Assembly (NCBI GenBank): GCA_963666985.2
Contig: CAXXIA010000001.1
Span: 1,120,001 to 1,184,000 of the forward strand
Origin: Spirochaetia bacterium
Lineage (GTDB): Bacteria > Spirochaetota > Spirochaetia > DSM-2461
Direction: 5' to 3'
Length of the DNA: 64,000 nt
Both the position numbers and the translations under genes were made by a program. The notes beneath the pieces were generated by a model, which saw only the letters and a program-made list of their open reading frames with translations, was not told the DNA's origin and did not search any database. Each line of letters opens with the position of its first letter. The stretch's first letter is position 1. This document shows positions 48,187 through 64,000 of this stretch, one piece after another.

Positions 48187-49466
48187 AACCGGGAAACAAA
48201 AAATTCAGACACAGTTCGATACGCGAACGCCGCCGCTATTTTCGCGAAGCCGCTCTCGATGATATTCAGGCCGAAGACTTTGCGTTCACCGGCGCCGACG
48301 AAGGACTGCTCGATCTCTCCGAAGCCATGGTCGAACAGGCGGTCGGTTATGTCGGCGTTCCCCTCGGCATCGCCGGACCCTTTCTCATCGATAACCGAGA
48401 CGTCCTGATTCCTCTGGCCACAGAGGAGCCGTCCGTGATTGCCGCCGCCTCTTTCGCGGCTTCCATAACCAGAAAGCACGGCGGACTGATGACCAAAGCC
48501 GGCGAGCCTGTTATGACGGCGCAGATTTTTTTGGAAGATACCGGAGAGCGCGGAGCCGACGGCGTTGACGCCGTGCTTTCCTCGCAAGAGAGAATCCGTG
48601 AGCACCTGAAACCCGTCCTTGATTCCATGATGCGCCGCGGAGGCGGCTGGAGGGGGCTGGATGCCCGGTGGATCGCTCCCTCGCAGACGCTCTCGGTGAA
48701 CGTTCGAATCGACGTCAGAGACGCCATGGGCGCCAATCTGCTCAACAGCGCCGCAGAAAAGCTTCGCCCGCTTCTGGAAGAAATCACGGGAGGCCGCGTT
48801 CTCATGGCCATCCTCTCCAACCGTTCCTGGGACCGAACGGCCTCCGCCCGGCTGCAGATTCCCCTTTCGGCTTTGGGCCGTCCCGGCTTCAGCGGAGAAG
48901 AGACCGCCAGACGCATTGTCCGCGCTTCCAGAATCGCCCGGGAAGACCCCGACAGGGCCGTTACCCACAACAAAGGGATTATGAACGGAATCAGCGCTCT
49001 GGCGCTTGCCACGGCCAACGATACCCGGGCCATCGAAGCCGCCGCGCACGCCTACGCGGGACGCTACGGGCCCTACCACGGGCTCACCGAATACTGGATT
49101 GAAGAGGGCACTCTTCACGGCAGTCTTGAAATGCCTCTTCCGTTCGCCGTTACAGGCGGCGCGGTCGGGTTCCATCCCGCTTCCCGGTGGTCCCTGAATC
49201 TTTTGGGGAATCCGGATGCGCCGATGCTCAGCCGCATCGCTGCGGCTCTCGGGCTGGCTCAGAATCTCGCGGCTCTGCGCGCCCTTGTCTGCGAAGGAAT
49301 CCAAACCGGGCACATGGCCCTCCATGCCAGAAGACTTTCTTACGACGCGGGCGCCCGAGGCGATGATCTTTCCGAATTCGCCGATGAAATCCGTTCCCGC
49401 GAAATTCGAAGCCGAGAGGATGCCTTAACGCATTTTGAATCTTGGAAAGCAAAAAAGGACGGATGA
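48183..49466 (+). CDS. mvaA: HMG-CoA reductase, class II
   Basis: PLGIA, PLATEEPSVIAAAS, DAMGAN, AILSN, RAVTHNKGIMNG, NDTRAIEA, GLAQN..ALRAL..EGIQTGHMALH. Confidence 0.95.
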   Translation: MKPGNKKFRHSSIRERRRYFREAALDDIQAEDFAFTGADEGLLDLSEAMVEQAVGYVGVPLGIAGPFLIDNRDVLIPLATEEPSVIAAASFAASITRKHGGLMTKAGEPVMTAQIFLEDTGERGADGVDAVLSSQERIREHLKPVLDSMMRRGGGWRGLDARWIAPSQTLSVNVRIDVRDAMGANLLNSAAEKLRPLLEEITGGRVLMAILSNRSWDRTASARLQIPLSALGRPGFSGEETARRIVRASRIAREDPDRAVTHNKGIMNGISALALATANDTRAIEAAAHAYAGRYGPYHGLTEYWIEEGTLHGSLEMPLPFAVTGGAVGFHPASRWSLNLLGNPDAPMLSRIAAALGLAQNLAALRALVCEGIQTGHMALHARRLSYDAGARGDDLSEFADEIRSREIRSREDALTHFESWKAKKDG

Positions 49467-50485
49467 GAATGTCCGCTGATTCGCCTCTCTCCCAGGGGGA
49501 AGAAATCATCGGGGAAGCCGTTGCCTCGGCGCACCCCAGTTTGGCCCTGATTAAATATTGGGGGAAACAGGACGTTGCGGAAAACATTCCGGCCACGCCT
49601 TCGCTGGCGATCACCCTGGACTCTCTTACCACCGAAACGGCCGTGCTGCTTACATCGACACACGAAGTTCCCGAAGATCGGGTTTTTATCGGCGGGCAGC
49701 TTCAGCCTTCCGACAGATTCGCTCCTTTTTTTTCCGCTTTTCGCCGTTTTTTTCCTAATCATGAAAGCCCGTCCTTTTCGGTTACGGCGCGCAGCATGTC
49801 GAACTATCCCTCCGCCGCGGGGCTGGCGAGTTCCGCCGCCGGTTTCGCCGCGCTCGCCAAAGCCTGTACCGCCGCCGCCGATCTGAAAACCGGCGACGGC
49901 GAGCTGTCGGCCCTCGCCCGTATCGGATCGGCCTCCGCGGCCAGATCCCTCTTCGGCGGTTTCGTCCGGCTTGACGCCGGCGCGAAAAAAGCCGTCCCCG
50001 TTAAAGACGCCGATTGGTGGCCCGGCTTAAGAATTATCGTGGTGGAAGTGGCACAGGTTCCCAAAAGCATCTCCACCAGAGAAGCCATGGAATCGGTTCG
50101 CACCACATCGCCGTTCTACAGCGCCTGGATTGAGGACTCACCGAATCTGATGGACGGCGCCCTTGCGGCCCTGGAAGAAAGAAACCTTGATGAGCTGGGT
50201 CCGCTTATGCGGATGAGCTATCTTCGGATGTTCGGCACGATGTTCTCCGCGAATCCCCCCATTGTCTATTGGAAACCCAACAGTCTCGGCCTTATAGCCG
50301 CCTGTAACGAAATGCGGCGCAAGGGTTTAAGCGTCTGGGAAACCATGGACGCCGGACCTCAGGTAAAAATTCTCTGCAGTGAAGAACATCTTGAGGCCGT
50401 CGAACATTATCTTGCGGATGCGTTTGCCTCTCTTCCCAGACGTGTCTGCCGTATCGGCGAAGGCGCGGCGGTTATAAAAAGATGA
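49463..50485 (+). CDS. mvaD: Diphosphomevalonate decarboxylase
   Basis: ALIKYWGK, P.SAAGLASSAAGFAAL, ARIGSASAARS, TMDAGPQVK; ATGA overlap with mvaA. Confidence 0.93.
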   Translation: MRMSADSPLSQGEEIIGEAVASAHPSLALIKYWGKQDVAENIPATPSLAITLDSLTTETAVLLTSTHEVPEDRVFIGGQLQPSDRFAPFFSAFRRFFPNHESPSFSVTARSMSNYPSAAGLASSAAGFAALAKACTAAADLKTGDGELSALARIGSASAARSLFGGFVRLDAGAKKAVPVKDADWWPGLRIIVVEVAQVPKSISTREAMESVRTTSPFYSAWIEDSPNLMDGALAALEERNLDELGPLMRMSYLRMFGTMFSANPPIVYWKPNSLGLIAACNEMRRKGLSVWETMDAGPQVKILCSEEHLEAVEHYLADAFASLPRRVCRIGEGAAVIKR

Positions 50486-51534
50486 CAAACCGCACGATGC
50501 TTTGGACCTGCCCGGGCAGCCTCCTTATCGCCGGGGAATACCGTATAACGGAAGAAGGAGGAAGGGGGCTCGCCGTCGCGGCCGGTCCTGTCGGCAGAGC
50601 CTTCAGGGAACCCTCGGAAGAACCGTCGGTACGCTCGCTCTGGCCCGGCGGCGGATGGGAAGGGCAAATCATCACTCCGGAAATGTTACGGGGCGCCTCC
50701 CTCGCCGCCGCCGCTCTCCGGGAAATGCCGGCGGCCGATTCTTCCGAAATTCGCGCCTCATCCTCACTGAAGGCCCCCGGGCCCGTTTTTACCATTACGG
50801 TCGATACAACCGGCTTTTTTCGCGAAGACGGCTCCAAACTCGGCTACGGTTCCAGTGCGGCCGCCTGCATGCTGCTCTGCCGCTCTTTTGCTCCGACCAT
50901 GGAGACCGAAAAAGCCGCTCACGCGGCAATTCGGGCCCACCGCGCCTGGCAGGGCGGCCGCGGGAGCGGATACGATGTTTTGGCCTCCGCGTTCGGCGGC
51001 GCGGGACTGTTCATCGGCGGCAAAAAACCGATATGGGACCATCTGAGTTGGCCCGGAAACCTGAAAGCCTGGATTATCCATGCACCCGAAGCCGTCCGTA
51101 CTCCCCGTGCCGTTTCCCTTTATAAACAATGGCGGATGGAATGCCCCGACGAATCCGAGAAACTCCTTTCACGCTCCGATGAACTGGTAAACGGTTTAAC
51201 CCGGATTTTCAAAACCGAATCGGAATCCGCGGACACATCGGTTCCGGAGATTCTTCGCGAGCTTTCCGATATAGGCCGCATCCTTGGAGAAAAAATCGGA
51301 GTTCCGGCCGAACCCGTCCTTCCCGAAGGACTCACCGGGATTCTTCAAGATCAAACCCGTAAAAACATCGCCGCCAAATGTCTGGGCGCCGGAAACGAAA
51401 CAGTCCTTCTCGCCGCTTTGCCCGACAGCCTGACAAAAACCGAGCAGGCGGCCCTCGATTCGGCCATTGATGCGGGCACGGCAACTCCTCTTATCCTCAG
51501 AAAGGAAGGAATCCGGAGAGAATCCGGCCTATGA
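50482..51534 (+). CDS. mvaK2: Phosphomevalonate kinase (GHMP family)
   Basis: PGSLLIAGEY, KLGYGSSAA, AHRAWQGGRGSGYDV, KCLGAG; position within the MVA operon. Confidence 0.85.
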   Translation: MTNRTMLWTCPGSLLIAGEYRITEEGGRGLAVAAGPVGRAFREPSEEPSVRSLWPGGGWEGQIITPEMLRGASLAAAALREMPAADSSEIRASSSLKAPGPVFTITVDTTGFFREDGSKLGYGSSAAACMLLCRSFAPTMETEKAAHAAIRAHRAWQGGRGSGYDVLASAFGGAGLFIGGKKPIWDHLSWPGNLKAWIIHAPEAVRTPRAVSLYKQWRMECPDESEKLLSRSDELVNGLTRIFKTESESADTSVPEILRELSDIGRILGEKIGVPAEPVLPEGLTGILQDQTRKNIAAKCLGAGNETVLLAALPDSLTKTEQAALDSAIDAGTATPLILRKEGIRRESGL

Positions 51535-52544
51535 CGCTTCACGGTACGGGCAGAGGCAAGCTCATCCTTTTCGGCGAGCATGCGGCTGTTCACGGTCATC
51601 CGGCGGTCGGGATTCCTCTCGAATGCAGCCTCCTCATCACTTGGACCGATGAAATCGAACCATCGGATTTGCCCTTTTTATCCGGCGCGGATCAATCCGC
51701 CGACGGCACTCACGGTAATAATTCGGACGCTTTAACTCTTCAAGAGCTCCTGAAGGATCTGAAAGCCCTGAATCCCCCTTCTCTCCCCTCGGGAGGAACA
51801 TGGAGCGTAAGAGGGAATGTACCGAGAGCAGGCGGTTTCGGATCTTCGGCGGCCCTTTGCGTGGCTCTTGCCCGTATCGCGAGAAGAACACACGGCACCG
51901 GATATGAAAAGGAAGTCCACCGCCTGGCCAATCTCCTCGAACAACGTTTCCATATAACGCCCTCCGGCATCGACACGGGATTGGCATCCTCCGAGAGCCC
52001 CGTAATCTGGAGAAAAATAGAAAACGACGTTCCCGAACGCATTCCCCTTAAGATACCGGAGCTTCATCTTCTCTACGGAGCTCTTCCGCGTTCCGCGTCC
52101 ACGGCGGGAACGGTCGGCGCTTTGTCGGCCAGGGCGAATGCGGGCGACAAGCACGTTATGGACGTTATGGACGGACTCGGACGAATTACGGAAGAGTTCA
52201 TCCTCCTATGCGGTCGGGCCCGAAGAGGACGAAACGACTCCGCCCTCGCCCCGATACCCGGATTCGCTCAAGAAGCCGGGATACTTGCGGATAAAGCCCA
52301 ATCTCTGCTTGCGGAATTGAACCTCTCCACGCCCGCTCTTGATGAAATCCTGCACATATCAAAACATCTTGGCGCCGTCGGAGGGAAACTCAGCGGCGGC
52401 GGCTCGGGGGGAGCCTTTTTTCTTTGCGCTCCGAATATACCGACACGCGACCGCTTAGCCGAAGAATTACCGCCTCTTCTTGAGAAGAAAGGCATCACTC
52501 TGGCGTATCGGCTTACCCCGCTTGACGCCGGAAATGTTCGCTAA
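51531..52544 (+). CDS. mvk: Mevalonate kinase
   Basis: GKLILFGEHAAVHG.PA, P...GFGSSAA, E..FH.TPSGID, GGKLSGGGSGG. Confidence 0.9.
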   Translation: MTLHGTGRGKLILFGEHAAVHGHPAVGIPLECSLLITWTDEIEPSDLPFLSGADQSADGTHGNNSDALTLQELLKDLKALNPPSLPSGGTWSVRGNVPRAGGFGSSAALCVALARIARRTHGTGYEKEVHRLANLLEQRFHITPSGIDTGLASSESPVIWRKIENDVPERIPLKIPELHLLYGALPRSASTAGTVGALSARANAGDKHVMDVMDGLGRITEEFILLCGRARRGRNDSALAPIPGFAQEAGILADKAQSLLAELNLSTPALDEILHISKHLGAVGGKLSGGGSGGAFFLCAPNIPTRDRLAEELPPLLEKKGITLAYRLTPLDAGNVR

Positions 52545-53732: not shown

Positions 53733-54362
53733 TCAGCGCTCCTCGGCCGCGGCCGTCAGTACAATCGACGCTCCGTCGGTCAATATCACCGAATTCTTCT
53801 CATAGGGAATCTCTTCATTGCCTATGAGAAGTGTAAATTCTATATCGAAATTTAAGGCTCCCGGGGTTGTCTCCAGATTGATTTCCGCCGTTTCTCCGTC
53901 CCTGATCGAACGCCCGCCCAGAACATCGGAACCCCACCGCTCGTCGCTCGATGAACTGATTCTTAATGAAATAATCGTGGCGCCCGTTCTGTTGTTCAGT
54001 TTAAATCGTCTCTCGGAGCCCGCGAACTCGGACAAACGCGCCAGATGTTCAGGGCCTACCGTAACCTTCCCCGTCGGCGCCGGAAACACATCGTAAAGGA
54101 TATAAACCTCTCCGCTTGAATCAATCATTCGAAAAGCCCACGGCGAAGGTCCGATTAGATCCAAACGGACGGACTCTCCGTCAAGAACAATCCTCTCGGG
54201 AATAAGATCTTCTCCCCATTGGTCCGTTCCATGAGAAGCCGCTTGAATAATTTCAATGGAACATCCGGTTCGATTAACGATTAGAATCCCTTCCGAAAAT
54301 CCGGCTCCCGCCGCGAGCAAAAGAAATCCCAAAGCAATCGGAAGGCCGTATCGCGATATCAT
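53733..54362 (-). CDS. Exported hypothetical protein with two tandem about 95-aa repeats
   Basis: Signal peptide; NRTGCSIEIIQAAS..TDQWGEDLI and NRTGATIISLRISS..DERWGSDVL repeats; ATGA overlap with the cyclase gene. Confidence 0.75.
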   Translation of the reverse strand: MISRYGLPIALGFLLLAAGAGFSEGILIVNRTGCSIEIIQAASHGTDQWGEDLIPERIVLDGESVRLDLIGPSPWAFRMIDSSGEVYILYDVFPAPTGKVTVGPEHLARLSEFAGSERRFKLNNRTGATIISLRISSSSDERWGSDVLGGRSIRDGETAEINLETTPGALNFDIEFTLLIGNEEIPYEKNSVILTDGASIVLTAAAEER

Positions 54363-55801
54363 GCTTCTTCCAATTCCTCGGATTTATCCTGATACTCAAG
54401 AATGGCCGCTTTGATTTCGGAGAAAAACAGCGGGAAAATGACGTTGTGAAAATAATAGGCCTGATGTGTAACGCCTCTGTTCATATTGTAGGATCTGTTG
54501 ATCACGGCCCTTGTTTCGGCCATCCATTTGTCATAGCCGCCGAAATCCGAATCATCTTTTTGGGGGCTTTTTCTTTCCTTAACCGAATCCTGAAGTTTTC
54601 CGAGAAGCTCCAGAAGACTGAAAAGCGTATATCTTTCGTTTAAAGCGGCTCTGATTTTTCCGGAATCTCCCGAATCGCTTAAAATCATTTTCTTGTACTT
54701 ATCAGGAAACATGGTTCTGAACAGCGAATACTTCTTCAGCTCCACACCTTCTTTCCGAAAGAGATCTTCCAATTTATCGATGACAAAATGATTTCCCCGA
54801 TAATACTTGATGAAATTGACGATATCATCGGCTCCGGTTTCTCCGCGCCGCAAAAGCAGTTTCGTCTGATCCCTGATACTCTCGGGAAGCGCCGGATTAA
54901 CTTGAATGCTGTATGTCTCGAATTCCGCGTTCTTTTTATCCTTTAAATTCACGACGGCTTTCTGGAACAGCTCCTCAAACGAGATATCACGGTAAACGCT
55001 CCCCATGGCTTCGGCTTCTCTTTTCAGCCGCTTATGGTATTCGGCGGTGATTCCCGAACCTTCCAGAATATTAAAAAAATCGGAGGTAAGGCGAAGGCCG
55101 CCGATCGGCGCCGAAGATTCCATTCTCTTGGCCTCAATAACGGGCATGCCGATAACGTCCCACTGCTTCGCGCCGTCCGGTCCGAAATTACCGATAAGAA
55201 CCCGCCCCATGGAAGCACCGATACGAATACGGATTTGAAACAAAGCGTTAAACGAAGCCGAAGCATAACCGTTTCGAAGCTGCCCCAGAATCCCGTAGGC
55301 CTCATGTATGGCGTCGATTGTGGGCTCATCCCCGATTTTCCTTAAATAGTTCTCATTGGCCTGATTGAAAAGGCTGCTGATTCTCTGAAGCTCAACGCAT
55401 GTAAAAAAAAGCTCTCGGGCCACTTTCTTCGCGGCTTCATCTTCATCCAAATTTTTTATTTGCGGATCGATCGGACCGCCGTAGTGAAACATCAGGCTGT
55501 CGCCTTCAATCTTGTTCAGATACGCGCCGTGCTTCCTTAAAACCCAGTTGAACGCCGAATACAATCCGTTCAAGACGATTTGATTTTCCGGCGGGCTTAA
55601 AAACTGCGAGAGGAAGGTGTACCGGGCGATATCGAGAAAGGCAATCCCGATAAGCGTTTCATTGGATTTGGAATGAATCCCGCCGGCTTCAACAATGGCT
55701 TCGACAAGCTGTCTGGGTAAATAGAATTCCTCTATCTTCCTACGGAGAGTAAGTTCCTCGCTTAAGGTGCCTTGGCTTTCCGGACCGAGATAAGCATTCA
55801 T
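54359..55801 (-). CDS. Class III adenylate/guanylate cyclase domain protein, cytoplasmic
   Basis: AFLDIARYT (Asp1), KIEGDSLM (Lys + Asp2), IRIGASMG.VLIGNFG, WDVIG.PV..AKRMES; no TM segment. Confidence 0.85.
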   Translation of the reverse strand: MNAYLGPESQGTLSEELTLRRKIEEFYLPRQLVEAIVEAGGIHSKSNETLIGIAFLDIARYTFLSQFLSPPENQIVLNGLYSAFNWVLRKHGAYLNKIEGDSLMFHYGGPIDPQIKNLDEDEAAKKVARELFFTCVELQRISSLFNQANENYLRKIGDEPTIDAIHEAYGILGQLRNGYASASFNALFQIRIRIGASMGRVLIGNFGPDGAKQWDVIGMPVIEAKRMESSAPIGGLRLTSDFFNILEGSGITAEYHKRLKREAEAMGSVYRDISFEELFQKAVVNLKDKKNAEFETYSIQVNPALPESIRDQTKLLLRRGETGADDIVNFIKYYRGNHFVIDKLEDLFRKEGVELKKYSLFRTMFPDKYKKMILSDSGDSGKIRAALNERYTLFSLLELLGKLQDSVKERKSPQKDDSDFGGYDKWMAETRAVINRSYNMNRGVTHQAYYFHNVIFPLFFSEIKAAILEYQDKSEELEEA

Positions 55802-55879
55802 TTATTACTTATAATATCGATTGTATTGCTTCTTGTCACATCATTTACATAAAGGTCTTTTAAGAAGGATAATCACAGC

Positions 55880-57013
55880 ATGATTCTGAATGAAAACGTC
55901 GATCGAAAAATCATTCCCATCGCGGGAGGCAAAGGAGGCGTCGGGAAAAGCATTCTGGCGGCGAATATTGCTCTCAGCATGGCGCTCTATGGCAAGAAAA
56001 CCGTTCTTGTCGATCTTGATCTCGGCGGTTCCAACCTTCATACACTGCTCGGAATGAAAAACATTCATCCCGGAGTGGGTAATTTTCTATCGGGGAAAAA
56101 ATGTTCCCTTCAGGATTTGGCGGTTCCCACGGAATGGGAAAACCTCTTCTTCATACCCGGCGATGTTCTGGTCTGCGGAATCGGAGAACTCACCAAATCG
56201 ATAAAAGCTCGTGTGGTGAAGGGACTGCTGGAAATTGACGCCGACTACATTATTATCGACCTCGGCGGCGGGACGAATTTTACGGTTATCGACTTTTTTC
56301 TTATATCGAATTCGGGTTTCATCGTTACCACTCCTCAGAGTACGGCGATTATGAACGCATATTCTTTTTTGAAGAATTATGTTTTTCGTTTTCTTCAGCG
56401 GGCCTTTTTCCAGGATAAAACCATCACGGCCTATCTTAAAAATATCCTGAAGGAACAGCAGCCGGGCGGATCATCCTCCGTTCCAAGCATTATCGGCGGT
56501 ATCTACGAAATAAGCTCGGAAGCGGGAGAAAAAGCCGAGGCTTTTCTTGAGGTTCTGCAGCCCAAACTCATACTGAACAAACTCAATGAAATGGAAGACG
56601 TTCTCATCGCGCAAGGACTGCGCGATCTGTGCGCAAAGAACCTCTCTCTCGATCTCGAGTGTCTCGGGACCATCATGAACGACACGTCCGTCGACGAGTC
56701 CATCGATGTGCAAAGGCCGTTCATTCTCGATCATTCCGAAGAAGTCGTGACTCAGGAGATTCATAGGATTTCCCAGAAAATCATCCAAAGCGGACAATTT
56801 CCCAGGATGCCTCTGGAACTCGATTATTATGCCGACACATTTGAACTGGCTCTGATGGAAACGGAAAACGATATGGCGGCAAACCGTAAAAACACCGAAA
56901 GCGCGGAGAAAGAACGATACGATATCGACAAACTTCTGGAACTGGTCCGTATTCAGCAAAGTAAAATCATGGAACTCCAGAGTACCGTGAAAATACTATC
57001 GATGAATCACTGA
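55880..57013 (+). CDS. MinD/ParA-family P-loop ATPase (FlhG/FleN-like)
   Basis: Deviant Walker A GGKGGVGKS, DLDLGGSNLH, IIIDLGGG, VTTP, ILNK; C-terminal coiled-coil extension. Confidence 0.88.
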   Translation: MILNENVDRKIIPIAGGKGGVGKSILAANIALSMALYGKKTVLVDLDLGGSNLHTLLGMKNIHPGVGNFLSGKKCSLQDLAVPTEWENLFFIPGDVLVCGIGELTKSIKARVVKGLLEIDADYIIIDLGGGTNFTVIDFFLISNSGFIVTTPQSTAIMNAYSFLKNYVFRFLQRAFFQDKTITAYLKNILKEQQPGGSSSVPSIIGGIYEISSEAGEKAEAFLEVLQPKLILNKLNEMEDVLIAQGLRDLCAKNLSLDLECLGTIMNDTSVDESIDVQRPFILDHSEEVVTQEIHRISQKIIQSGQFPRMPLELDYYADTFELALMETENDMAANRKNTESAEKERYDIDKLLELVRIQQSKIMELQSTVKILSMNH

Positions 57014-57103
57014 AACCTTTATGAAATACCCGATGCCGCAGGGGCTTATCGAGTCCGTTTCAACAATTCACCGATAAAAGGACGTTCTTTCCGCCCATCG
57101 CCC

Positions 57104-57658
57104 TTAACCCAGGCCGAAAGGAACCATCAGTTTCGCAAGAGGTGCATCAATAACGTCACAGGCTTTCTTGGCATCAGTTCTCGGAACGCTTAAGGTCTTC
57201 CAGAATGACTGTTCAAAAAAGCCGAGAATCGTTCTCTGAGTCGATTCTTCTTTGTAGACGATATAGGAGGTGTTCAGTCCCGTTTCATTGGAGATTGTAA
57301 AGGATGTGTAGGTTTCAACCGGTTCCTTCGCAATCATGATTTTTTCCTGACGCTTCGTCGTATAGATATCCAGCTCTTTGATACGATAGGGAATACGGTG
57401 AGCGTCGTCCCGGTAGGCCGGCTCCACATGCTTCGCGCTGTAATTCAGGGGTTCAAAGAGGACGAAGAGCTTTTTTCCGTCGGCCTGAAACATAATCCCC
57501 TCTTCCATCATGTAGATGTCTTTCACATTTCCGTAAGAAATAACTTCATATCGCGCGTACCTGGAAGAATCATTCAGTAATTCCGTGATAATGAATCCCC
57601 CTTCGCGGGGCAACTCATTACTGCTATAAGCTTCGAAGAGATCCATGATCTTGGCCAT
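57104..57658 (-). CDS. Hypothetical protein (184 aa)
   Basis: ATG 57658 with AGGAG RBS and a near-consensus promoter; globular composition; no family recognised. Confidence 0.75.
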   Translation of the reverse strand: MAKIMDLFEAYSSNELPREGGFIITELLNDSSRYARYEVISYGNVKDIYMMEEGIMFQADGKKLFVLFEPLNYSAKHVEPAYRDDAHRIPYRIKELDIYTTKRQEKIMIAKEPVETYTSFTISNETGLNTSYIVYKEESTQRTILGFFEQSFWKTLSVPRTDAKKACDVIDAPLAKLMVPFGLG

Positions 57659-57677
57659 ATTCGCTCCTTCTAGCCTG

Positions 57678-57729
57678 AGTATAGAAAGGGTGTATAAGGT
57701 TGTCAATTTTCATTTATCGGCCCTAAGAT
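57678..57729. promoter_or_regulatory. Back-to-back sigma70 promoters with overlapping -35 boxes
   Basis: Minus: TTGACA(57701-57706)-17-TATACT(57678-57683). Plus: TTGTCA(57700-57705)-18-TAAGAT(57724-57729), 6 nt before ATG 57736. Confidence 0.6.
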
Positions 57730-57735
57730 GCAACC

Positions 57736-58572
57736 ATGGAAGTTCGCCGCGCCCTGGCCCTCTTTAAAATAGAGGGCCGTATACCCATTGATGAACTGAA
57801 CGCCGCTTTCAGGTCTCTGGTAAAAAAATATCATCCGGATAAAGTTCGCGACTATCCGGAATGGGCTCATGAACGAATGGCCGAGATAAACGACGCATAT
57901 GAGACTCTGGCCTCATGGATTGCAAAGTCCCGGGAACAAACGCCGGAGCAAAATGACGTTTATAACGAAACCGAGACGGAAGAGCCTGCGGATTTCAAAA
58001 AAAGCGAAGACATTCCGGAAATGGAGGGCCGGCTCGGGAAGGAATTCGAGAACGCCTATGCAATTTTTCTCGACGGTCTCGGACTCTACTACCAGTACGG
58101 CCTTGAAAATCCCTCTTATCGCACCGAAGGGGTTCGACGCTTCCGGTATCGGGAGTCTCTCAGAACCGCGAAAAGGGGACGGGATATACTGGAAGACTGC
58201 GCATCGGAAACCCGCCATCCGGTTATCCGCGCCGTCGCTAGATTTTCCCGCCTTTCGATAGCTGATATGGATCTCGGCTTTCTCGTATTTTCGGAAACGC
58301 AAAAGAGCGCAAAGAAAATGGACGAGCGCTTCAAGGCGGCGAAAAAAATGTTCGACGAAGCCGTAAAGGTCTACCTTTTTCCGGAACTTGTACCGAATCA
58401 CCTCCATGCGAAGGTCCGTGCCGGTTTGTATTCCTGCTACACCGAATTCGTAATCTACCTGACGATGTTCCCGAAAGGAGAACGCCGAAAAGCGGCGATA
58501 CTTGCCGCCGCCCGATATGATGCGTTCATGGATTTGATTGAATTAAGAAATGCCGGCCGGCTGGATTTTTAA
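57736..58572 (+). CDS. J-domain protein (N-terminal DnaJ domain plus unknown helical C-terminal region)
   Basis: AFRSLVKKYHPDKV...MAEINDAYETL. Confidence 0.85.
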   Translation: MEVRRALALFKIEGRIPIDELNAAFRSLVKKYHPDKVRDYPEWAHERMAEINDAYETLASWIAKSREQTPEQNDVYNETETEEPADFKKSEDIPEMEGRLGKEFENAYAIFLDGLGLYYQYGLENPSYRTEGVRRFRYRESLRTAKRGRDILEDCASETRHPVIRAVARFSRLSIADMDLGFLVFSETQKSAKKMDERFKAAKKMFDEAVKVYLFPELVPNHLHAKVRAGLYSCYTEFVIYLTMFPKGERRKAAILAAARYDAFMDLIELRNAGRLDF

Positions 58573-58573
58573 G

Positions 58574-60302
58574 AAAGGGGCTGTCTCATAAGAGGCGGCC
58601 CTTTTTCATGTCTGGAAGAATTCCCTTCTGAATTCAAGGGTGGTAGAATTCTTCATGGACACTAAAAAGAAGGCTACATTCAAAGATTACGAAATCAGCC
58701 AACAGATGCTCCTGCCTCCAAGTCTCGATGAACTGCTTCCCGCAAACCATATATCCCGCACAATCAACAACTTCATCGACACGATGGATACCAGTGAGCT
58801 CTTCAACGCCTATCCGGGAGGCGGTGCCAGCAGCTACCACCCGGTGATGATGCTGAAGGTTCTGGTGTTGGCCTACTCGAAACAGCTGTATTCCTGTCGT
58901 CAAATCGCAGACGCTCTTCGTGAGCAGATATGCTTCATGTGGATCAGTGGTAATAACCGTCCTGATTTCCACACGATAAACAGATTTCGTAACGGTCCAT
59001 TGAAGAAGAGCATCGAGAAAATCTTTGCCTCAATGGCCAACAGCCTCATCGAGAGCGGACATGTCCAGATGGAGAACTACTTTCTCGACGGCACAAAAAT
59101 CGAATCAGCAGCTAACAAATACACATGGGTATGGGGCCGGGCGACAGACAAGTTCCAGAAGCGCCTGGCCGGCAATATGGATGAGCTTTTCGAATACATC
59201 GACCGCATCAATGAAGAAGAGGATGAGAAGTACGGCGACCATGACCTTCCCCATGTGGATCCTCAAGGCAGGCCGATGTCGGAGATTCTCGAAGATGCGG
59301 TATCCAAGCTCAATGAAGAGCTGCGCAAGGATCGGGAGGAGCGAGAAAAGAAGGAGATTCAACGGAGATTGAATACCGCTAGCAAGGACTATCTCCCTCG
59401 TGCCAAAAAGTATGAGCAGCAGAAGAGAATCCTCGGCGACCGAAATAGTTACTCGAAAACAGACTATGATGCGACTTTCATGCGGATGAAAGAAGACTAT
59501 ATGAAAAATGGTCAGCTCAAGCCCGGGTACAACATCCAAATGGGTACTGAGAACCAGTTCATCCTCGGATATAGCATCCACCAGAGTCCCGGTGACTCCC
59601 TGACATTGCCGCTACATATGGAGAAACTGAAAAAGAATCTGAAACGCTATCCGAAAAGAATCATTGCTGATTCAGGATATGGTAGTGAAGAGAACTACCA
59701 GTGGTGTGAGGATCATGGTGTCGAGAAGTACATCAAGTTCAGCTACTTCCACAGGGAGCGGAAACGGAAGTTCAAGAAGCAGATTCATATGAAAGAGAAC
59801 TGGGACTATCGTGCCTCTGATGATACATACCGGTGCCCCAAGGGTCGCCGATTCAAACACGAGGAGACCAGAATCTCGAAAACAGGTTCAGGATTTCCGA
59901 CCACTGAAAAAAGGTATACAGGCCCTGGATGCCAAAGGTGTTCTCTCCGAATCCGGTGCTGCAAATACGGAGGCAAAGAGCGCATCCTGACGGTTCGTCC
60001 AAACCTGGAACGGCATAAGTCTGAAGTGCGCAAGTTGCTGACTTCAGAGGAAGGACTGAGAATGCGCTCTCTCAGGCCGATTGAAGTCGAATCTGTATTC
60101 GGAGATATCAAGACGAATATGGGATTTCGGAGATTCCGAACCAGGGGATTGAAGATGGTCAGTACTGAATGGGGACTGTTGAGTATGGCTCATAACATGA
60201 GGAAGCTACAGAAACGATAAGGGGATGGGAGGGAACCTCCCGTCTTCGGAGGTCAACCAAATTTTAAAAGGGGCTGTCTCAAACTAATGAGACAGCCCCT
60301 TT
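58574..60302 (+). mobile_element. IS1182-family insertion sequence
   Basis: Perfect 16-bp terminal IR AAAGGGGCTGTCTCAT (58574-58589)/ATGAGACAGCCCCTTT (60287-60302) enclosing a single transposase. Confidence 0.88.
58655..60220 (+). CDS. IS1182-family DDE transposase
   Basis: LLPPSLDEL, YHPVMMLK, PDFHTINRFR, DGTKIESAANKYT, SKTDYDATFMRMKED, GYNIQ, ADSGYGSEEN, VESVFGDIK...GFRRF, AHN. Confidence 0.93.
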   Translation: MDTKKKATFKDYEISQQMLLPPSLDELLPANHISRTINNFIDTMDTSELFNAYPGGGASSYHPVMMLKVLVLAYSKQLYSCRQIADALREQICFMWISGNNRPDFHTINRFRNGPLKKSIEKIFASMANSLIESGHVQMENYFLDGTKIESAANKYTWVWGRATDKFQKRLAGNMDELFEYIDRINEEEDEKYGDHDLPHVDPQGRPMSEILEDAVSKLNEELRKDREEREKKEIQRRLNTASKDYLPRAKKYEQQKRILGDRNSYSKTDYDATFMRMKEDYMKNGQLKPGYNIQMGTENQFILGYSIHQSPGDSLTLPLHMEKLKKNLKRYPKRIIADSGYGSEENYQWCEDHGVEKYIKFSYFHRERKRKFKKQIHMKENWDYRASDDTYRCPKGRRFKHEETRISKTGSGFPTTEKRYTGPGCQRCSLRIRCCKYGGKERILTVRPNLERHKSEVRKLLTSEEGLRMRSLRPIEVESVFGDIKTNMGFRRFRTRGLKMVSTEWGLLSMAHNMRKLQKR

Positions 60303-60331: not shown

Positions 60332-62953
60332 CTAAGATGCGGCCTCTTTGTTCTTCAGATTAATCTGCGCTATGGTAAGCTTCGCCACGGGGATGCCGTA
60401 GGGAGAACAGCTGACGTAATTTAAACCGGCTTCCATGCAGAAGGCGATATTCTCCGGCTCGGCGCCGTGTTCGCCGCAGAGGCCGCACGTAAGATCCGGT
60501 CTGACGAAGCGTCCTCTTTCCGTGGCCATGCCGACGAGCTCTTTTACCGGCTCCTGAAGATACTGGAACGGATTTTTGTCCAGAAGGTCATACTCGTTGT
60601 AATCGGTGAAGAATGAGTTGAAATCGTCGCGGCTCAGTCCGAGACAAGTCTGAGTCAAATCGTTCGTTCCGAAACTGAAAAAGTCCGCATAGTTGGCGAT
60701 TTTATCCGCAAGGAGGGCCGCCGCCGGCAGCTCGATCATGGTTCCCACGTGATATTCAATCTTTTCCTCGCCGTTCTTTTCGCGGAGTTCTTCTTCTATC
60801 TGCCTGATTCCGACAATTTCAAATCCTTCGATTTTCTTTCCGAAACGAACCGTTTTAACTTCCCTGGGGCTCATGATGATGGGAATCATGATTTCAGGCT
60901 TACAGACGATCCCTTTATCTTTGCGGAGCTTAAAAGCCGCCTCAAAGATGGCTTCAACCTGCATACGATAAATCTCAGGGTATGTGATGGCCACACGAAC
61001 ACCGCGATGACCGAGCATGGGATTCACTTCGCTGGTCATGTCGCAGCGCAGTCTGATTTCGGCTTCGGGTGTTTTCGGATGATCTTTTTTGTAAAACGCG
61101 ATGAAATCATCCATCGTTTCCTTACTGTGCGGAAGGAATTCATGGAGCGGAGCATCAAGCAGACGGATGGTAACGGCTTTATCCTCCATCACCTCGAACA
61201 GTCCGTAGAAATCGCTTGCCTGCATCTTCTTGAGCTTCGTCAGAATCTTTTCGCGCTCATTCCTGTCGGAAGCAATAATGAGAGAACGGAAGGTCTGAAT
61301 ACGCTTTTCGTTGAAGAACATATGCTCGGTTCGGCACAGACCGATTCCGTCGGCAAGAAACTGCTTGGCGAGCTTGGCGTCTTTCGGCTGATCGGCGTTG
61401 GCATGAACATCAAAATCGAAGATCTGATGCTGCACTACTTCCAAGAATTCCAAAAGTCCGCTCTTTTCAATGTCGGGTTCGATCAAATCCAGCTTGCCGA
61501 AATAAATCGTGGGATCTTCATAGGAAGGAACATCCAGGCAGATATAATCACCTTCCGTAATCACCTTGTCACCGATTTTCAAACCTGCCTTGGAGAACAT
61601 GATATTCGGGTTCACCATGGCGACTTTACCCAATGATCGGGCGACAACCGGCGCATGAGAGGCATAACCGCCTTCACGGGTTAAAACGCCTTTGGCAGCC
61701 TCGATGGCCTTCACGTCCTCGGCATACGTTGAGTTCATCGCCAGAATGAAATTCGTCTCCAGTCCTCTTTGACTTGCGATCCGGAACTCCTTCATCAAGC
61801 TTTCGGTATTGAAGAAGACTCGGCCGACGGCGGCGCCCATGGCGCCGGAGATGCCGCCGGTAACGGAAGGAACTTTCGTGGCGGATCGTTTATCGATAAT
61901 GGGATGCAGAATCTCGGAAAGACGTCCGGACTGAACGGTATTGATGACATACGCATCATCAACGACTTTTTTCGAAAGCAAATCCAATAAGGTTCTGATT
62001 TCGGCCTGCGCCGATTTACCGGGAACACTCGATTGATCGATAATCCAGAGCTTTCCGTTCTCGACGTTAAATTTGATATTTCGAATTTCTTTGTAGGATG
62101 TTTCCAGCTGCTTGCCGATTTTCTCCAGTTTTTCCAAATAGGTCTTGCTGATCTTGCGAATCGGCTGCCCCGCGGCTTCCGTGGCATCAAAAGCATTCAG
62201 GAAGAAATCACCCGTTATAACATCTTCACCCGTTATGGAATCGCGCGTGGAATAACTGCCGAAGAAGCAGTCTTTGCCGTAATTCCCGAACGTCATCGCC
62301 TGAACGAGGATGGCCGAATCACTTAAGGTTTCACTGTCGGCAAACAGTTTGCGGAACAGTCCTTTGACGAATTGGAACTGTTCGGTCGCATGAGCAAAAA
62401 TCTCTTCCGGATAGATGGCTTTCACCTTCTCAAGGATTTTCTTGATGGCCGCTGTGGTCTTGGCTTTCTTAATTTCTACAATTGTTTTTTCAAGAAGTCC
62501 CCGCCGCTCTTCGTCGCCGGTCGTTAAGAGCTCCAGTTCCATAATTCGTTGCAGAACTCCGCGATACTCGTGGTAGGCGAAATCCTCGCCGACGAAACCG
62601 GCAAAGCCGTCGATTGTCGTATCGCATAATCCGACATTATGAATGCTGGAGAATGTATGAACCATATTCAGCATGGGACTGACGACCAGCTTAATCAAAA
62701 GCGGATTATCCTTATCCCACATCTTTTCCAGGATTCCGCCCATTTTGTTAAAAGCGTTCTGATAAATTGAATCGTGGGCCTCGGGATCTTCTTCATCCTC
62801 AGCCAGGAATGCTTCGGTTAAAATGAATCCGGGCAGAATGGGGATTCCCAAAGACGCCAGATCCATAAGGTTCCTGCCGCGCATTCCAAAATGCTGGATG
62901 ATATCCTCATCTTTCGTGAATTCGCTGCTGCTAAATGAAAATATTTCTTTCAT
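60332..62953 (-). CDS. ppdK: Pyruvate phosphate dikinase-like PEP-utilising protein with a degenerate nucleotide-binding domain
   Basis: Full PPDK architecture with SHAPVVAR, GIGLCRTEHMFF, TIRLLD, NPMLGHRG, MIELP, GTNDL, CGEHG intact, but N-domain ATP/Pi motifs altered. Start reassigned to ATG 62953. Confidence 0.85.
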   Translation of the reverse strand: MKEIFSFSSSEFTKDEDIIQHFGMRGRNLMDLASLGIPILPGFILTEAFLAEDEEDPEAHDSIYQNAFNKMGGILEKMWDKDNPLLIKLVVSPMLNMVHTFSSIHNVGLCDTTIDGFAGFVGEDFAYHEYRGVLQRIMELELLTTGDEERRGLLEKTIVEIKKAKTTAAIKKILEKVKAIYPEEIFAHATEQFQFVKGLFRKLFADSETLSDSAILVQAMTFGNYGKDCFFGSYSTRDSITGEDVITGDFFLNAFDATEAAGQPIRKISKTYLEKLEKIGKQLETSYKEIRNIKFNVENGKLWIIDQSSVPGKSAQAEIRTLLDLLSKKVVDDAYVINTVQSGRLSEILHPIIDKRSATKVPSVTGGISGAMGAAVGRVFFNTESLMKEFRIASQRGLETNFILAMNSTYAEDVKAIEAAKGVLTREGGYASHAPVVARSLGKVAMVNPNIMFSKAGLKIGDKVITEGDYICLDVPSYEDPTIYFGKLDLIEPDIEKSGLLEFLEVVQHQIFDFDVHANADQPKDAKLAKQFLADGIGLCRTEHMFFNEKRIQTFRSLIIASDRNEREKILTKLKKMQASDFYGLFEVMEDKAVTIRLLDAPLHEFLPHSKETMDDFIAFYKKDHPKTPEAEIRLRCDMTSEVNPMLGHRGVRVAITYPEIYRMQVEAIFEAAFKLRKDKGIVCKPEIMIPIIMSPREVKTVRFGKKIEGFEIVGIRQIEEELREKNGEEKIEYHVGTMIELPAAALLADKIANYADFFSFGTNDLTQTCLGLSRDDFNSFFTDYNEYDLLDKNPFQYLQEPVKELVGMATERGRFVRPDLTCGLCGEHGAEPENIAFCMEAGLNYVSCSPYGIPVAKLTIAQINLKNKEAAS

Positions 62954-63025
62954 GGCTCTCTCCCATGTGGTTACACAGAAAGCGCCCCGACTCAAAGCCG
63001 GGGTTCGGAATAGGCCGCTAGGCCG

Positions 63026-64000
63026 TTAAAAGAGTTGAAGTATCGTACCCGGTGCTCCATGGAGGAACGCCTCAAATCGCTGGCTGGCGCCTTCAAAAAG
63101 ATATTTTCTTAATTTTGAAAGATCCGTTGGGTTATCTCCGGCGACACTGAACATAATCGGGGTACCGTGCTTTACCTTACCCCATTTGAAAAGGGCATTT
63201 ATATCGTTAATCCGTTCACCATCATACCAGATAAGAACATCAAGATGAGGATACTTGAATCGATAGCTTTCAATAATCCTTTTCCAGGCCTCAACATTCC
63301 CGTTATGAAACAATTCGTTCGTAACATTGACGCCGATCTTGGCCGTAAGTTTCTTCGATCCGCCCGTCTGCGGAGGCGGAACGACGCTTTGAGAGGCCGG
63401 AGATTCTTCCGATACGGAAGCACTCTTGACAGGAGGGGCCTGCGGTGCCGGCTTCTCTTCTTCCAAATACCGCTTAAGACGGTCGGATCCCTTGTAGCCG
63501 GCCTTTCCTTTTGTTTTACCGCCGTAGAGCAGCGAAAAAACATCGGCAACGGCGCTTTCCAAAAGATCGGCTTTTACCTCGCCCGGCGATCCGACATAGC
63601 ACACGATGTGCTCATCTTTCGCCAAAGGAAGCGCCGCTTCCCAGGGACCGGGATCTTCCGGATTTAAAAGATGAATTCCGTTATTGGCATCGGTATAAAC
63701 CAATACCACCTGCAGTTTGTTCCAGCCCTCGGCGACCTTGGAGAGTCCGTCCATGGTTTCAACATTCTGTTTCAGATTTTCCGAAGCAAACGCATAGCCG
63801 AATTTTTCGGCCAAGAGAATGTTCACAACCGGACGGATTTGGAATTCCTCAATCTTTTCTTCGTCAAGAGCGGCATTGAGGATGTCGGCCAGATTATATC
63901 CCTCGCCGACATCCCCTGAAAATTCCTGCGCCGTCCGGAAGTGGCGCAAGGCTAAGTTGTATCCGGCCCTGCGGGCCAGTAAATTCAGCTGGTTATTCCG
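63026..64000 (-). CDS. Hypothetical protein with C-terminal HPr-like domain; 5' end lies outside the window
   Basis: Frame is open to base 64000; unknown N-domain, Pro/Ser-rich linker, then VNVTNELFH...DVLIWYDGERIN...VKHGTPIMFSVAGDN. Confidence 0.75.
   Translation of the reverse strand, partial: RNNQLNLLARRAGYNLALRHFRTAQEFSGDVGEGYNLADILNAALDEEKIEEFQIRPVVNILLAEKFGYAFASENLKQNVETMDGLSKVAEGWNKLQVVLVYTDANNGIHLLNPEDPGPWEAALPLAKDEHIVCYVGSPGEVKADLLESAVADVFSLLYGGKTKGKAGYKGSDRLKRYLEEEKPAPQAPPVKSASVSEESPASQSVVPPPQTGGSKKLTAKIGVNVTNELFHNGNVEAWKRIIESYRFKYPHLDVLIWYDGERINDINALFKWGKVKHGTPIMFSVAGDNPTDLSKLRKYLFEGASQRFEAFLHGAPGTILQLF

Follow-up and report, generated by a model that had tools for sequence, protein, structure and literature searches.

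The 64,000-nucleotide window analysed here (positions 1,120,001 to 1,184,000 of contig CAXXIA010000001.1, from a Spirochaetia bacterium) closes with two adjacent genes, which code for a paralogue of pyruvate phosphate dikinase (PPDK) and for a protein of the TP_0747 family, below called the partner, and which lie downstream of cfpA, the gene for CfpA, the cytoplasmic filament protein of spirochaetes. We take the three genes to belong to a single module. Our reading of it, to which we assign a probability of about one half, is that the paralogue and the partner make up a histidine-to-histidine relay of the Enzyme I/HPr kind, which serves the filament and which in spirochaetes is fed by phosphoenolpyruvate (PEP). 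As far as sequences indicate, the universal parts of the module would be the two histidines, a rebuilt pocket in the paralogue and CfpA, with PEP not among them. Both open reading frames (ORFs) run on the minus strand (60332-62953 and 63026-64015) and were confirmed as real, and the first-pass annotation of the window had correctly described them as co-oriented neighbours 72 bp apart. The features of the locus are these:

60332..62953, minus strand: cfpA-linked PPDK paralogue, 873 amino acids (P0001), start codon ATG at 62953, with a remodelled ATP-grasp N-domain, a His-carrier domain and a PEP barrel
61919..62953, minus strand: N-domain of the paralogue, residues 1-345 (PPDK_N 17.5 bits against a cut-off of 27; column counts)
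61655..61657, minus strand: His433, matching the phospho-histidine His455 of PPDK, within GGYASHAPVVAR, from the alignment to C. symbiosum PPDK
60359..61435, minus strand: PEP-binding barrel with R541, R597, R650, E741, N764, D765 and C826 intact (PF02896, 249 bits)
62954..63025, minus strand: intergenic gap of 72 bp, containing a GC-rich hairpin (62985-63003) that has only a weak T tail
63026..64000 in the window, minus strand: TP_0747-family protein (the partner), 329 amino acids (P0003), start codon at about 64015, past the window edge (PF27497 TP_0747_N)
63077..63346, minus strand: predicted C-terminal HPr-like fold, partner residues ~224-313, from a predicted model and structure searches
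63305..63307, minus strand: candidate phospho-acceptor His237 of the partner, where helix A begins, between the invariant Glu234 and Glu242, from alignments and the model
63350..63478, minus strand: Pro/Ser/Ala-rich linker of the partner, low model confidence
63518..63796, minus strand: second, N-terminal HPr-like fold as predicted, partner residues 74-166, from VIA, the matching place having no conserved His

The paralogue aligns over its full length to C. symbiosum PPDK (E 3e-142) with recognizable PF02896 and PF00391 domains, and the ESM Atlas matches to its N-domain are PPDK_N clusters. It scores 644.3 bits against TIGR01828, the PPDK family, for which the curated cut-off is 843.45, and 123.5 bits against TIGR01417, the Enzyme I family (cut-off 341.7), and over the part compared is 35% identical to the canonical PPDK of its own genome. 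Conservation was read from 165 spirochaete-type rows, of which 110 came from loci and 55 from a protein search, duplicates between the two being left in. Site residues named as equivalents carry PPDK numbers; we take positions 92 and 323 of this numbering to be Arg95 and Glu324 of the plant enzyme, and for the other ATP- and PEP-site residues both role and numbering are likewise assumed. The carrier histidine, His433, is present in 164/164 of these rows and the equivalents of Arg561, Arg617, Arg665, Glu745, Asn768, Asp769 and Cys831 each in 165/165, which bears out the earlier statement that the PPDK homologue keeps its PEP site and phospho-histidine. The threonine that in PPDK stands two residues before the carrier histidine is never found (0/164, and 0/61 in the clade with an eroded PEP site described below), its place being taken by alanine or serine.

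At the ATP site, the equivalents of Arg92 and Glu323 occur in 0/165 rows and that of Asp321 in 7/165, whereas the canonical PPDK controls have Lys22, Arg92, Asp321 and Glu323 in 4/4. Over all rows read, Glu323 is missing in 224 of 224, with mostly lysine or arginine in its position, and Arg92 in 220 of 220; in plant PPDK the corresponding Arg95 and Glu324 contact ATP directly, according to PMC5507339. The equivalent of Lys22 is a conserved arginine (164/165) and Gln240 is kept. For Arg337, a register shift of one residue makes the difference between 59/165 and 1/165, and the same shift decides whether Gln335 survives as Gln307. The S-x-R motif has become K-x-V, a basic residue being retained on the same strand. 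Beyond these, we noted a set of new near-invariant N-domain residues, namely R25, K88, S92, Q218, N224, F255, R291, E298, W303, D/E306 and Q307 (each in at least 163/165), joined by K/R294 (156/165) and D256 (150/165). On this pattern of residues, the ATP site is remodelled and neither simply lost nor a decayed relic, and the paralogue would no longer perform dikinase chemistry. The loss of ATP-site residues claimed by the first-pass annotation is thus confirmed for Arg92 and Glu323; its term 'ATP-blind' is unproven, because the N-domain has been rebuilt around new near-invariant residues.

The last 110 amino acids of the partner gave an AlphaFold model with a predicted local distance difference test (pLDDT) value of 92.7 and a predicted template modelling (pTM) score of 0.88, in which the order of strands and helices is that of HPr and His237 stands immediately before helix A. 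With this model as the query, HPr and Crh chains top the Foldseek list (best E 0.011, none at or below 0.001), and in VIA, which covered 48,161 chains, HPr chains take ranks 1-4 (Z 6.8-7.0, root mean square deviation (rmsd) 2.2-2.9, 77-81 aligned). The HPr-like fold that the earlier annotation had assigned to this domain is therefore recovered by the predicted model, with no match at the level of sequence; the peptide quoted for it is present, and its histidine codon at 63305-63307 is that of His237. Likewise, as had been stated, Arg17 and Ser46 have no equivalents: His237 lies in the context H-N-G-N, which leaves no counterpart of Arg17-Pro18, and the aligned AKS motif is without serine. The N-terminal domain, formerly labelled unknown, has in the full-length model another HPr-like fold, formed by residues 74-166 (VIA Z 7.4, rmsd 2.2, 80 aligned to E. 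coli HPr), and a conserved histidine is absent from its matching loop (alignment columns 74-99). The partner is thus predicted to consist of two HPr-like folds.

His237 is present in 64/64 locus-derived rows, and in the wider pool its column holds histidine in 510/521 distinct rows and in 364/368 rows from proteins of at least 250 amino acids. A second conserved histidine, His25 (window ~63941-63943), occurs in an N-terminal helix motif in 60/64. Stand-alone homologues of the C-terminal domain, 110-150 amino acids long and without the aligned histidine, were also collected (P0335, P0339, P0341, P0342, P0345-P0348, P0355 and P0357; one cluster is named SAR324).

The linkage of the three genes is close to constant. 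The paralogue lies directly downstream of the partner in 60/63 distinct loci from other genomes, in 77/77 named genome loci with room for it and in 64/66 metagenome loci, and cfpA lies directly upstream of the partner in 56/60, 73/73 and 54/56 of the same three locus sets, which may overlap. In a survey of 301 sampled genomes of the phylum, the partner was found in 106, cfpA in 107 and a match to the paralogue N-domain (1e-30) in 108; three N-domain matches (27-29%) were judged to be canonical PPDK and excluded, and two genomes that have the partner but fell under the 1e-30 threshold were counted as positive, since there the paralogue adjoins the partner. Among the 106 partner genomes, the paralogue is present in 106 and cfpA in 105; one 82%-complete genome has the paralogue and cfpA only, another cfpA only, and 190 genomes have none of the three. 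The survey genomes are related and not independent, so that the co-occurrence stands for shared inheritance and co-loss, with no statistical test attached to it. In three genomes of one family (f44; L048, L056 and L058) the partner gene lies apart from the other two, and the paralogue and cfpA are still present. The loci in which cfpA is not directly upstream of the partner include L047, L257 and L259. In the present genome cfpA ends 6 bp further upstream of the partner gene and lies wholly beyond the window (about 1184025-1186002 on its contig C1); it was identified by an NF040882 match of 948 bits (cut-off 500). Together with PF27497 on the middle protein, this substantiates the order ppdK, hypothetical gene, cfpA that the earlier annotation had given for Treponema pallidum. 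In T. denticola, the expression of TDE0842, TDE0843 and TDE0844 changes together, according to PMC3914990.

Given these elements, a relay can be envisaged in which the intact barrel of the spirochaete paralogue would move phosphate from PEP to His433, as the chemistry of PPDK and Enzyme I suggests. In PPDK the His domain swivels between barrel and N-domain carrying phosphate, and PEP domain and histidine geometry are common to PPDK and Enzyme I (PMC5371819). In the paralogue, the His domain would swivel to the N-domain, where the former ATP cleft, now a basic site, may dock the C-terminal HPr-like domain of the partner, and His433 would hand its phosphate to His237. Since lysine or arginine has replaced the metal ligand Glu323 and the cleft has been rebuilt, an intact PEP site would most simply serve to load His433, which would then be unloaded on the N-domain side onto a docked protein; the co-inherited HPr-like domain, with a histidine at a helix start and two invariant glutamates beside it, would be the obvious acceptor. 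More speculatively, the N-terminal HPr-like fold, which has no histidine, and the N-terminal helices might hold the partner on CfpA, and the phosphorylation state might tune filament assembly or anchoring, the effect on CfpA being suggested by the linkage. Modelling of the whole paralogue in complex with the C-terminal HPr-like domain (score 0.23, mark 0.32) weighs neither way. Covariation over 165 paired loci placed partner positions 307-308 with 432-441 around His433 near the top, and this signal was rejected, since 2-3 changes on the tree account for it, with 1 independent pair.

Several observations weigh against the relay, and among them are those on the domains that it would join. PF05524, the HPr-docking helical domain of Enzyme I, is unmatched in the paralogue at E <= 1. 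For the C-terminal domain of the partner, the next folds in VIA, unrelated to HPr, follow at Z 6.0, and a Z under 8, the range to which values of about 7 belong, may reflect a common arrangement; the ungapped VIA ranges, which are not a residue superposition, give a one-residue offset between His237 and His15 of HPr. PF00381 is not among the 25 families shown, of 26 in all, for 98 partner-family members, and its profile matched the partner neither individually nor in the HPr search of its own genome. Aligned by hhalign to 31 HPr sequences, the C-terminal domain reached E 0.066, with 40 columns aligned in the register to be expected; neither domain against these sequences, nor the one domain against the other, gave a significant match (local mode E 0.03-0.07, reversed controls 0.17-0.56), the C-terminal profile drew only weak unrelated matches from PDB sequences and Pfam, and its ESM Atlas matches are all below 0.9. 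Furthermore, all twelve residues 233-244 are invariant in the same 64/64 rows, and the conservation of His237 is therefore not specific, the motif around it being almost entirely invariant. The exceptions to the conservation of the histidine are four long, divergent proteins and the short stand-alone homologues.

The last two points are readily accommodated if the module is a scaffold or conformational sensor without phosphotransfer, an explanation we consider rather improbable. The His domain and the rebuilt N-domain of the paralogue would bind the partner, and its conformation would do no more than shift upon self-phosphorylation or in response to PEP. The partner would be an adaptor to CfpA whose HPr-like folds act as binding modules; structures matched by Foldseek show HPr and Crh in this role with CcpA, Rsd or glycogen phosphorylase. 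A motif that is invariant as a whole, a second HPr-like fold devoid of the histidine and stand-alone homologues that do without it would all fit such a module; against it, both histidines seem to occupy the phospho-acceptor places of their parent folds, and the spirochaete-type copies retain the full PEP catalytic set, Cys826 included, in 165/165.

A further point on the same side as those gathered above comes from relatives labelled Deltaproteobacteria, SAR324 or Lambdaproteobacteria where their sources name them, which carry cfpA, the partner, the paralogue and often a second cfpA. In this PEP-eroded clade the equivalents of Arg561 (0/61) and Asp769 (0/58) are gone while His433 and the pocket stay. 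Cys831 (23/58), Arg617 (31/60) and Asn768 (29/58) are partly kept, Arg665 (59/60), Glu745 (57/58) and the carrier histidine (61/61) are retained, most positions of the rebuilt pocket stand at 54/54 to 59/59, and the partner has its histidine in 6/6 loci of this kind. In a FastTree tree of 55 rows, the 15 sampled members fall on one side of a single branch with support 100, and the loss of the PEP site therefore looks like one derived event, the family being unrooted. Four PEP-intact relatives adjoin the group in this tree and were excluded from both the spirochaete-type and the PEP-eroded counts. On contigs of the SAR324/Deltaproteobacteria type (L215, L220, L234 and L240), a second cfpA directly follows the paralogue, and in L215 and L234 the genes after it look by eye to be of the GspL/M type (type II secretion).

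Given that this sister clade keeps the carrier histidine while its PEP site is eroded, sensing of the PEP/pyruvate ratio, which the first-pass annotation had proposed as the function, cannot be universal. The persistence of the module despite the loss of PEP-site residues also suits a scaffold, against which the retention of His433 in 61/61 of these proteins has to be set. Under the relay, the conserved core would be the pair of histidines with the rebuilt pocket, PEP input would be limited to spirochaetes, and the SAR324-labelled clade would have to draw phosphate from another source or run the flow in reverse; it could do either because transfer steps of the phosphotransferase system (PTS) are reversible (PMC8100219). 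The Enzyme-I-like interpretation of the earlier annotation is supported in part. The checks that this annotation had set on fold, histidine and gene context came out in its favour, with an HPr-like fold in the predicted model, a conserved histidine, and co-occurrence and synteny that include cfpA, and the interpretation fits the intact PEP site and carrier histidine of the spirochaete copies. The term 'ATP-blind' leaves unexplained an N-domain pocket that is as strongly conserved as the histidine.

That conservation is the starting point of a second alternative, which we likewise doubt: the rebuilt N-domain could still be an active or ligand site, for a nucleotide, pyrophosphate or another anion, making the paralogue a kinase with a changed donor or acceptor. 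The N-domain rather than PEP would then be the ancestral input or output of His433, whether or not this histidine feeds His237. The near-invariance of R25, K88, S92, Q218, N224, R291, K/R294, E298, D/E306 and Q307 in both clades speaks for this, as do the basic residue kept in the K-x-V motif and the mean identity in the PEP-eroded clade, which is higher in the N-domain than in the barrel (0.67 vs 0.60). Opposed to it are the absence of Glu323 and Arg92 from every row read and the standing of the N-domain as the least conserved part of the family as first sampled (0.41 vs 0.63).

The metabolic background of the genomes bears on these alternatives and adds to the case against the relay. The present genome (contigs C1 and C2) has six PEP-utiliser barrels, which belong to the paralogue, the canonical PPDK (C1:1283301-1285916) and four Enzyme I-like genes, one of them in a 912-amino-acid frame, and it has two HPr genes as well. 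HPr was found in 120/121 genomes, along with Enzyme I-like genes, and the relay would therefore be an additional one, with no known downstream acceptor. In the complete 1.14 Mb genome G102, pyruvate kinase has no match and a canonical PPDK is missing; this makes a metabolic role of the paralogue conceivable and would fit new N-domain chemistry; GTP-PEPCK and an oxaloacetate-decarboxylase-type (OadA-type) subunit are a possible bypass there and reduce the force of this point. G102 also has HPr and an Enzyme I frame with the histidine motif. That the paralogue is an ordinary divergent PPDK, as annotated, linked to its neighbours by co-expression alone, is very improbable, for although it has the PPDK architecture over its full length, is the sole PPDK-type gene in G102 and G159 and is taken as a glycolytic PPDK in the case of T. 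pallidum TP0746 (PMC10013896), it scores under the TIGR01828 and PPDK_N cut-offs, has in all copies lost ATP-site residues that the controls keep, is accompanied by at least one other PPDK-type C-domain in 93/106 partner genomes and co-occurs with the other two genes even where they are unlinked.

We would put forward tentatively the wider claim that a PPDK duplicate independently turned into a kinase of protein histidines, with an ATP cleft converted to the docking site for a tandem HPr-fold adaptor, in a cytoskeletal phosphorelay fed by PEP in spirochaetes and rewired in SAR324-type bacteria. If the histidine-kinase reading is true, a treponemal gene annotated as a glycolytic PPDK codes for a signalling protein. 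In the literature consulted on the treponemal locus, the third gene is treated as a glycolytic PPDK, with TP0746 said to make ATP from PEP, AMP and pyrophosphate (PMC10013896), and the middle gene is hypothetical (PMC3914990 among the sources). Every aligned cfpA-linked copy lacks both the ATP-site arginine and the glutamate, and T. pallidum TP0746, judged by its family, would lack them too; the ATP-site loss in the cfpA-linked copies thus calls the standing annotation of TP0746 as an ATP-making PPDK into question. In T. denticola, CfpA filaments have been connected with cell division and with condensation of the chromosome, and no regulators of them are named in the text consulted (PMC3398590). 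The module offers two specific candidate partners for CfpA, with two histidines and one pocket as targets for mutation. In G102, which has the paralogue only and no pyruvate kinase match, the end of glycolysis is a testable question.

As for the surroundings, cfpA is preceded by a sigma-70-type consensus (12/12, a consensus match only), and in this assembly its reading frame is interrupted by a frameshift close to the 5' end, beyond the window (L001 9855-9856). At the same site a one-base indel distinguishes the contigs that two runs of a single related sample gave, and the frameshift may be an assembly error or a strain difference. The hairpin in the intergenic gap has no support for a function, since terminator-like sites number 8 against 8.3 expected by chance, and no RNA holder is listed for the locus. 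Tail to tail with the paralogue lies an IS1182-family transposase (58640-60220, plus strand; 416 bits, cut-off 270). Further away are three adjoining GHMP-kinase-like ORFs (49442-52544, plus strand), by eye mevalonate-pathway-like, and, at 54359-58572, an adenylate/guanylate cyclase-domain gene, a MinD/ParA-like ATPase, a 184-amino-acid ORF without a family match and a DnaJ-domain protein.

Among known systems, the gene order and families are those of the Treponema cfpA locus (TP0748 cfpA, TP0747 and TP0746 'ppdK'; TDE0842-0844; PF27497 and NF040882; PMC3914990). The literature searched, which took in few subscription papers and no supplements, held nothing on TP0747 as HPr-like or on TP0746 without its ATP site; within it the module is undescribed, and the mechanism we propose is plausible. 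With PPDK (EC 2.7.9.1, TIGR01828; C. symbiosum 1dik/1kbl and Flaveria 5jvj/5jvl) the paralogue shares the three-domain layout, the carrier histidine and the PEP barrel residues, but it differs in the missing Arg92 and Glu323, the rare Asp321, the arginine at Lys22 and the alanine or serine before the carrier histidine, in the new invariant residues that line its cleft, and in its fixed linkage with cfpA and the partner, beside a canonical PPDK in most genomes. With Enzyme I and HPr (PtsI/PtsH, and the EI-Ntr/NPr branch) the likeness is that of a PEP barrel and His-carrier domain encoded next to a predicted HPr-like fold with a histidine at the start of helix A. Unlike Enzyme I, the paralogue has a domain derived from ATP-grasp in place of PF05524; unlike HPr, the partner has two HPr-like folds with N-terminal helices, no PF00381 match and no equivalent of Arg17/Pro18 or Ser46; and, as distinct from the PTS, canonical HPr and Enzyme I are encoded elsewhere in the genome. 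On the features tested the pair thus belongs to none of PPDK, Enzyme I and HPr, and it would, if the model holds, work as Enzyme I does with HPr.

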